This document shows, piece by piece, positions 3,271-5,077 of a stretch of 64,000 nt of DNA; within the stretch, counting starts at the first letter, position 1; each line of letters starts with the position of its first letter. The stretch lies in the NCBI RefSeq assembly GCF_024700885.2, contig NZ_CP117016.1; one strand, 5' to 3'. A program made the translations under genes and the position numbers. Below the pieces are notes generated by a model. The model saw nothing but the letters and a program-made list of their open reading frames with translations. It did not search any database and was not told where the DNA came from. The DNA is from Escherichia coli. Its GTDB lineage: Bacteria > Pseudomonadota > Gammaproteobacteria > Enterobacterales > Enterobacteriaceae.

Positions 3271-4080
3271 ATGAATAATCTGATGGTCATTGATGGTATT
3301 GAAGTTCGTCGTGATGCTTATGGACGTTATAGCCTGAACGATCTGCATCGCGCAGCAGTAGCATCTGGTGCAAATGCCAGAACCAAGGAGCCAGGAAAGT
3401 TTCTTTCCAGCCAACAAACTGTTGAGCTTGTTCATGAATTGACCAACACCCAGAATTTGGGTGTTGACCCGGTGAGTGTGATTCATGGGGGAAATGAACG
3501 GGGAACGTATGTCTGTAAGGAACTGGTGTATGCCTATGCAATGTGGATCAGCCCGTCATTCCATCTGAAGGTGATCCGTACTTTCGATATGGTAACCAGC
3601 GCACCGGAAAAATTATCCGGGCAGGCTGCTGACAAGATGCAGGCTGGAGTGATTCTGCTGGACTTTATGCGCAGGGAGTTAAACCTGTCTAACTCATCTG
3701 TGCTTGGGGCCTGTCAGAAACTCCAGGAGGCTGTTGGCTTACCGAATCTGGCACCGCGTTATGCCATTGATGCTCCTGCTGACGCGCCTGATGGCTCAAG
3801 CCGCCCCACGCTGTCACTGAGTGCACTGCTGAAGCAGTATGGTATCCGCCTGACGGCTAATCAGGCATATCACCAGATGGCGAAGCTGGGGATCGTCGAA
3901 CAGCGCGAACGATACAGCCGTACAGCGATTAACAACATCAAAAAATTCTGGTCGCTGACAGCGAAAGGCTGCATGTTCGGCAAGAACATCACCAGTCCCG
4001 CAAATCCGCGCGAGACGCAGCCGCATTTCTTCGAATCCCGATTCCCTGAGCTGTTAAAGCTGCTCGATACCGTTCATTGA
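3271..4080 (+). CDS. KilA-N domain protein (antirepressor-like)
   Basis: N-terminal KilA-N-like region (VIDGIEVRRDAYGRYSLNDLHRAA...KELVYAYAMWISPSFHLKVI); RBS AAGAGGAG upstream. Confidence 0.6.
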   Translation: MNNLMVIDGIEVRRDAYGRYSLNDLHRAAVASGANARTKEPGKFLSSQQTVELVHELTNTQNLGVDPVSVIHGGNERGTYVCKELVYAYAMWISPSFHLKVIRTFDMVTSAPEKLSGQAADKMQAGVILLDFMRRELNLSNSSVLGACQKLQEAVGLPNLAPRYAIDAPADAPDGSSRPTLSLSALLKQYGIRLTANQAYHQMAKLGIVEQRERYSRTAINNIKKFWSLTAKGCMFGKNITSPANPRETQPHFFESRFPELLKLLDTVH

Positions 4081-4081
4081 G

Positions 4082-5077
4082 GTGACCGTGAGAGCACTAC
4101 TGACCCCTGAAATTGCCCCGCGTATGGGGATCGTATTGTTCAGGCCAGGTTCAGAGCTGATGCCCCTGTTTATGCAGGGGCGTGTCCTGCTGGAGCCTGA
4201 GCCGGAACGTTATTCATCTTTCGCCAGTGGTGCCGTTCCGGCGGCATCACAACCGCTGGCGGATGATCCTGCCGTTCGGGCCGTGTTCCGCAATGAGGCA
4301 GTGATCCGTCGTGCTGGTGGCGTGGAATGTCTTGAAAGCTGGTTACTTCGTGAAAAAGGCTGCCAGTGGCCTCATTCCGACTGGCACAGCGAGAACATGA
4401 CCACAATGCGACACGCGCCGGGCGCAATCCGTCTGTGCTGGCACTGCGATAACCAGCTGCGCGATCAGTTCACGGAACGGCTGGAATCAATGGCAACGGA
4501 TAACTGTGCCCGCTGGGTGTTGTCTGTTGTGCGTCGGGATCTCGGTTTTGATGACAGTCACGTTGTGACAATGCCGGAACTGTGCTGGTGGCTGATTCGT
4601 AATGACCTGGCGGATGCCTTACCGGAAAGTGCAGCCCGTAAGGCACTGAGATTACCAAAGCCTGTTGTGCCGTCTGTCACCCGGGAAAGTGACCTTGTGC
4701 CTTCGGTTCCTGCCACCAGCATCATCCAGGATAAAGCGAAAAAGGTGCTGGCGCTGAAAGTGGATCCGGAGTCGCCGGAGTCTTTTATGTTACGCCCAAA
4801 ACGTCGCCGCTGGGTTAATGAAAAGTACACGCGCTGGGTTAAGACACAGCCGTGTGCATGTTGTGGAAAGCCCGCTGATGATCCCCACCACCTGATAGGT
4901 CACGGTCAGGGTGGAATGGGAACAAAAGCGCATGACCTCTTTGTGTTGCCTTTGTGCAGAAAGCATCACGACGAGCTGCATGCGGATACCGTGGCATTTG
5001 AAGAGAAGTATGGCTCTCAGCTGGAGCTGATATTTCGTTTTATCGATCGTGCGCTGGCAATTGGCGTATTGGCGTAA
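4082..5077 (+). CDS. DUF968-like phage protein with C-terminal Cys/His (HNH-like) motif
   Basis: C-terminus CACCGKPADDPHHLIGHGQGGMGTKAHDLFVLPLCRKHHDELH; GTG start inferred. Confidence 0.45.
   Translation: MTVRALLTPEIAPRMGIVLFRPGSELMPLFMQGRVLLEPEPERYSSFASGAVPAASQPLADDPAVRAVFRNEAVIRRAGGVECLESWLLREKGCQWPHSDWHSENMTTMRHAPGAIRLCWHCDNQLRDQFTERLESMATDNCARWVLSVVRRDLGFDDSHVVTMPELCWWLIRNDLADALPESAARKALRLPKPVVPSVTRESDLVPSVPATSIIQDKAKKVLALKVDPESPESFMLRPKRRRWVNEKYTRWVKTQPCACCGKPADDPHHLIGHGQGGMGTKAHDLFVLPLCRKHHDELHADTVAFEEKYGSQLELIFRFIDRALAIGVLA

Follow-up and report, generated by a model that had tools for sequence, protein, structure and literature searches.

The locus between the replication genes and the Q antiterminator gene of a lambda-like E. 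coli prophage raises the question of what two adjacent genes, encoding a KilA-N protein and a DUF968 protein, contribute to the phage. Both are ordinary early genes that databases already list, and the prophage is a very common one: within the window (the whole 64,000-nucleotide stretch that was analysed), the DNA of these genes matches phage Ayreon and many E. coli chromosomes at 100% identity, and 3740 of 5426 complete E. coli genomes carry similar DNA. The assignment of the DUF968 protein to the HNH nucleases and its neighbourhood of RusA, Q and antirepressor genes were already in print in 2017, and the classification published there arrives at the same hypothesis for this protein (PMC5714182). 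Our search of the literature on DUF968 and YdfU returned bioinformatic mentions only, and a published assay of the enterobacterial DUF968 family was not found. To the existing annotation we make three small additions, namely a corrected start codon, a description of the domain in the N-terminal half of the DUF968 protein and the removal of an antirepressor label. We consider it probable that the two genes, independent of each other, belong to the delayed-early nin region of an Ayreon/mEp460-type lambdoid prophage, one encoding a modular KilA-N DNA-binding regulator and the other a two-module nuclease of the YdfU family.

Gene order identifies a nin-region equivalent

The genes of the locus all lie on one strand, in the order HTH_36 replication gene, PerC-like gene, LexA DNA-binding domain, RusA, KilA-N, DUF968 and Q. 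The LexA-like protein (2539..2865, + strand; 108 aa from the PGAP start) consists of the DNA-binding domain only (Pfam LexA_DNA_bind, E 3.7e-19). Its match to TIGR00498 covers profile positions 1-91 of 203 and stays below the cut-off, and an S24 peptidase domain is absent from it in Pfam and NCBIfam searches. A homologue of the RusA Holliday junction resolvase follows (2862..3251, + strand; Pfam RusA E 1.2e-14, PHROG 34 E 8.5e-58), then the KilA-N gene (3271..4080, + strand; 269 aa, ATG start, Shine-Dalgarno AAGAGGAG; Pfam, PHROG 129), which is thus second downstream of the LexA-like gene, where the earlier note on this DNA had placed it. The DUF968/YdfU-family gene (4088..5077, + strand; 329 aa, GTG start; Pfam DUF968) precedes a YdfT-like Q antiterminator gene (5091..5843, + strand; Pfam Antiterm E 1.3e-53). 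The start of Q is ATG 5091 and not the mechanically called GTG 5049, as indicated by existing annotations and by PHROG 127, which aligns from residue 15.

A lambdoid nin region is defined by co-directional genes, some with recombination functions, in the interval from the replication genes to Q (cf. lambda, DLP12), and diverged DUF968 homologues occupy the same slot. The suggestion that the locus, together with RusA, is a nin-region equivalent is therefore well founded. Lying upstream of Q, both genes would be co-transcribed with RusA and the replication genes. Five lambdoid contexts place the DUF968 gene between replication genes and Q wherever those genes are within the contig, with RusA adjacent or one gene off in four of the five. 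KilA-N and DUF968 genes are not a conserved pair.

The KilA-N protein combines two modules

The KilA-N DNA-binding domain occupies residues 7-109 (3289..3597, + strand). Pfam supports the domain assignment of the earlier note with E 2.4e-22 and 79.2 bits against a cut-off of 23.8 (PF04383), and P1 KilA is 40% identical to the domain (tblastn, E 3e-10). KilA-N is a DNA-binding module. Over its full length the protein matches PHROG 129, 'transcriptional regulator', with E 2e-124.

The rest of the protein forms a C-terminal module (3643..4077, + strand; approximately residues 125-269) that lies outside any Pfam family. In other phages this module is joined to Bro-N, Rha or other N-termini (tblastn against phages, Pfam of the partners), and its alignment contains 22 invariant residues, including a GKN..P...RE...H motif. 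In other coliphages, C-termini of 99-100% identity follow KilA-N N-termini of 52-71% identity. These patterns suggest that the KilA-N protein would be a two-module phage DNA-binding regulator, in which an exchangeable N-terminal KilA-N domain is paired with a conserved C-terminal module of ~150 aa. Protein databases also hold RusA-KilA-N 'fusions' of 401-405 aa; these form clusters of one member each, almost all of them come from raw read-archive or metagenome assemblies, and they are probably gene-calling artefacts.

The earlier note called the protein antirepressor-like, which would mean that it binds and inactivates a prophage repressor. The C-terminal module does occur in proteins labelled antirepressor, such as 'Ant' of Pseudomonas phage F10 and proteins of Paenibacillus and Ruminococcus phages, but similarity is the sole basis of these labels. 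Upstream of the KilA-N gene, the same operon contains a C4-type immunity RNA; in P1, an RNA of this type controls ant. Against this reading, neither ANT/KilAC (PF03374) nor P22_AR_N/C gives a Pfam match in the whole protein or, at E<=10, in its C-terminal 161 aa. A likeness of the C-terminus to ANT or P22_AR_C was also rejected with hhalign, since proteins bearing these domains align with the N-terminal modules only. Furthermore, the gene sits in a delayed-early operon, so its product would be made only once the phage's own repressor is off and cannot set off the induction of the prophage that encodes it. The LexA-like protein of the window lacks a cleavable domain, and the cognate S24 repressor gene is located outside the window, just upstream of it. 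We therefore consider an antirepressor function unlikely and find the label unsupported. We established no link to AnrP, the antirepressor of Gifsy-1 that IsrK controls: the Gifsy-1 isrK locus is downstream of Q and has a different layout.

Start codon and family of the DUF968 gene

The open reading frame at 4082-5077 (+ strand) yields 331 aa from its first GTG. The earlier note inferred this start; GTG is indeed the codon, but the supported position is two codons downstream, at 4088, giving 329 aa. Start 4088 is called by both the Ayreon record and NCBI PGAP. A Shine-Dalgarno sequence, GAGGTG (4079..4084, + strand), overlaps the stop codon of the KilA-N gene and places GAGG (4079-4082) 5 nt upstream of this start. 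The PHROG 96 alignment begins at residue 3 of the 331-aa form, and the equivalent position is a GTG in K-12 ydfU and an ATG in diverged homologues.

Membership in DUF968 (PF06147), also proposed before, is confirmed (271.7 bits against a cut-off of 27.8, E 3.5e-81), with residues 162-328 covering profile positions 2-171 of 171. The full-length protein matches PHROG 96, 'HNH endonuclease', with E 3e-177. HNHc_6 (PF16784) gives a partial match (profile positions 123-184 of 204) with 26.9 bits against a cut-off of 26.6, which it only just reaches, and K-12 YdfU, with 26.4, stays just below. Pfam returned no match of the DUF968 protein to the Ref family (PF16786) at E<=0.01, and YdfU, at 17.8 bits, falls short of that family's cut-off of 26.9. 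NCBIfam and PADLOC contain no family for the protein.

The C-terminal core is a predicted His-Me finger

The His-Me finger (HNH) core spans residues 224-329 (4757..5074, + strand), with C256, C259, C290 and H293 as predicted zinc ligands and H268, D283, H294 and H298 as predicted catalytic residues. The Cys/His motif that had been quoted as resembling an HNH-type fold, CACCGKPADDPHHLIGHGQGGMGTKAHDLFVLPLCRKHHDELH, is present at residues 256-298 (329-aa numbering), and the predicted fold is that of a His-Me finger. The predicted structure shows the beta-beta-alpha-metal fold of this superfamily, with a catalytic histidine at the end of strand 1 and metal-binding residues on the helix. The full-length AlphaFold model has a mean pLDDT of 92.7. 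Profile comparison with hhalign connects the protein to Ref (Prob 82%, E 1e-5) and YbcO (Prob 81%). With lambda NinG, no profile match of significance emerged outside PCxxCG (Prob 6%). Foldseek against the PDB found nothing significant (best E 0.11), though the list is rich in HNH proteins. A PDB search with the single sequence returned 3g27 only, at E 1.2, and one with the full-length profile had no match at E<=10.

Among 38 diverged DUF968 homologues, C256 is present in all, C259 in 30 and C290 in 32; the catalytic residues are retained in 35 (H268), 38 (D283), 34 (H294) and 34 (H298). Five of the 38 have lost both C259 and C290 and retain the catalytic residues. Another three or four (P0192, P0193, P0253 and partly P0227) lack the catalytic histidines, suggesting that the family can persist without nuclease chemistry.

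The DUF968 protein might accordingly be mainly a non-catalytic DNA-binding or regulatory zinc finger in which the HNH motif is a structural scaffold. The homologues that have lost H267/H268, H294 and H298 keep the zinc cysteines and the N-terminal domain, and one group-7 member has been annotated as a transcriptional regulator (PMC5714182). In the staphylococcal phage protein Gp16, zinc-site mutants abolished the phenotype and catalytic-site mutants only weakened it (PMC12817073). The position of the DUF968 gene directly upstream of Q would also suit a regulator. We nevertheless doubt this explanation: the protein in the window has all catalytic residues, each conserved in 34-38 of 38 homologues, and the variants without catalytic histidines are found outside the nin context, one of them on a contig with a P7-type C1 repressor gene.

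The N-terminal domain carries its own Cys/His site

Residues 1-196 (4088..4675, + strand) form an N-terminal domain that folds confidently alone (model pLDDT 94.5, pTM 0.82) and has no Pfam match except the start of DUF968 at residue 160. Within it, a conserved Cys/His site surrounds a beta-beta-alpha unit (4361..4459, + strand; C92, H/C100, C117 and C/H120; consensus CQ...C...RLCWHHDN). This site is a candidate for a degenerate second His-Me finger, and it may be one on structural grounds only. Pfam scans of 35 members detected no HNH family in the domain, hhalign of the N-terminal against the C-terminal domain gave Prob 4%, and the idea that the domain is recognisable as HNH by sequence was dropped. 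A PDB search with the domain profile gave chance-level matches only (E ~0.4). We also considered a NinB/Orf-like N-terminal domain, as found in the Gram-positive Orf-HNH fusions of HNHc_6; the DUF968 protein does not possess one.

Proposed role of the DUF968 protein

Beyond the observed gene structure, family membership, predicted fold, residue conservation and genomic context, we infer a nuclease activity, its substrate and any RecA dependence. The C-terminal ~105 residues would form a zinc-stabilised beta-beta-alpha-metal active site, with H268 as the putative general base, D283 in place of the 'N', and H294 and H298 binding the catalytic metal. Selection of the DNA substrate or of a partner protein most likely falls to the structured N-terminal half, which has a Cys/His site of its own. 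The protein is thus predicted to be a divalent-metal-dependent DNA nickase or endonuclease, which would work with RusA on intermediates of phage replication and recombination (D-loops, branched DNA). Lambda Rap/NinG fills this role at the same genome position, as P1 Ref and staphylococcal Gp16 do in other phages.

A more specific version of this model, speculative and on balance rather unlikely, sees two His-Me fingers in tandem in YdfU-type DUF968 proteins. The N-terminal one (C92, C/H100, C117, H/C120, 'RLCWHHDN'), zinc-binding but without catalytic activity, would serve substrate or partner recognition and bring the active C-terminal one to D-loops made by RecA or to branched DNA, resulting in a Ref/Rap-like structure-directed nickase upstream of RusA. 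Lineages without the C-terminal catalytic histidines would keep recognition only.

Two other nuclease roles have to be weighed. The target could be the host, with the protein taking over or damaging host DNA metabolism, or fighting rival elements, instead of serving phage recombination. Its relative Gp16 inhibits growth and replication of the host (PMC12817073), and P1 Ref raises ciprofloxacin lethality (PMC4713147). However, the protein has no match to a PADLOC defence family, its gene keeps a conserved link to RusA and the replication genes, and most E. coli genomes carry that gene silently, though this is expected of any repressed gene. We regard a host-directed nuclease as quite unlikely. 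The protein could alternatively be a terminase-associated HNH protein that aids cos cleavage in packaging, like HK97 gp74, in view of the frequent requirement of terminases for HNH proteins (background cited in PMC12817073). Yet the gene is part of the early operon that precedes Q, a distance of ~5.6 kb with Q, a methylase and the lysis cassette separates it from the terminase genes, and its diverged homologues stay with replication genes, RusA and Q and not with terminase. Because the nin context is conserved, a homing endonuclease is unlikely, and a terminase helper highly improbable.

Should the DUF968 protein prove to be a structure-directed nickase like Ref or Rap, it would close a gap in the account of how lambdoid phages with RusA make and resolve their recombination intermediates. 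Prophage-enhanced DNA damage, which has been shown for P1 Ref, is another process to which it could be relevant. Most E. coli genomes contain DUF968/YdfU genes, and so do Stx-converting phages.

Comparison with known systems

For the KilA-N protein, the closest comparison is with the P1 KilA, Bro-N and Rha regulators. It shares its C-terminal module, which belongs to no Pfam family, with a Bro-N protein (Pseudomonas phage F10) and a Rha protein (phage Medea1). No KilAC/ANT domain is detected in it.

YdfU of the K-12 Qin prophage belongs to the same family and length class as the DUF968 protein, and ydfU has the same GTG start and the same position directly upstream of a Q homologue, ydfT. The two proteins are 57% identical overall; in 30-residue windows identity is only 33-60% up to residue 240 and 93-97% from residue 241, in the HNH core. 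A mosaic block common to both prophages (4760..5971, + strand; 89% DNA identity, blastn) comprises the 3' part of ydfU and ydfT, and it begins at approximately residue 225, the start of the HNH core and thus a domain boundary. The RusA and KilA-N genes that would precede ydfU have been lost from Qin.

P1 Ref, a RecA-dependent HNH endonuclease (PF16786, PDB 3PLW), appears from profile comparison to be related to the DUF968 protein by remote homology only. The N-terminus of Ref is a basic, disordered stretch of 76 aa, and Ref is under C1 repressor control, whereas the DUF968 protein has a folded domain of ~200 aa and is encoded in the nin operon. YbcO of DLP12 and phage 82 (PF07102, formerly DUF1364; PDB 3G27) is a single domain of 96 aa and has neither the N-terminal domain nor the linker. 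Lambda Rap (NinG), a branch-specific endonuclease classed as a His-Me finger (PMC5714182), is the positional analogue of the DUF968 protein between the replication genes and Q. Finally, Gp16 of S. aureus phage PhiNM1 (phiETA Orf20; HNHc_6) is likewise an early gene product, has the same motif spacing as the DUF968 protein (CxxC-9-H ... CxxHH-3-H), and is experimentally a nickase that binds RecA (PMC12817073).

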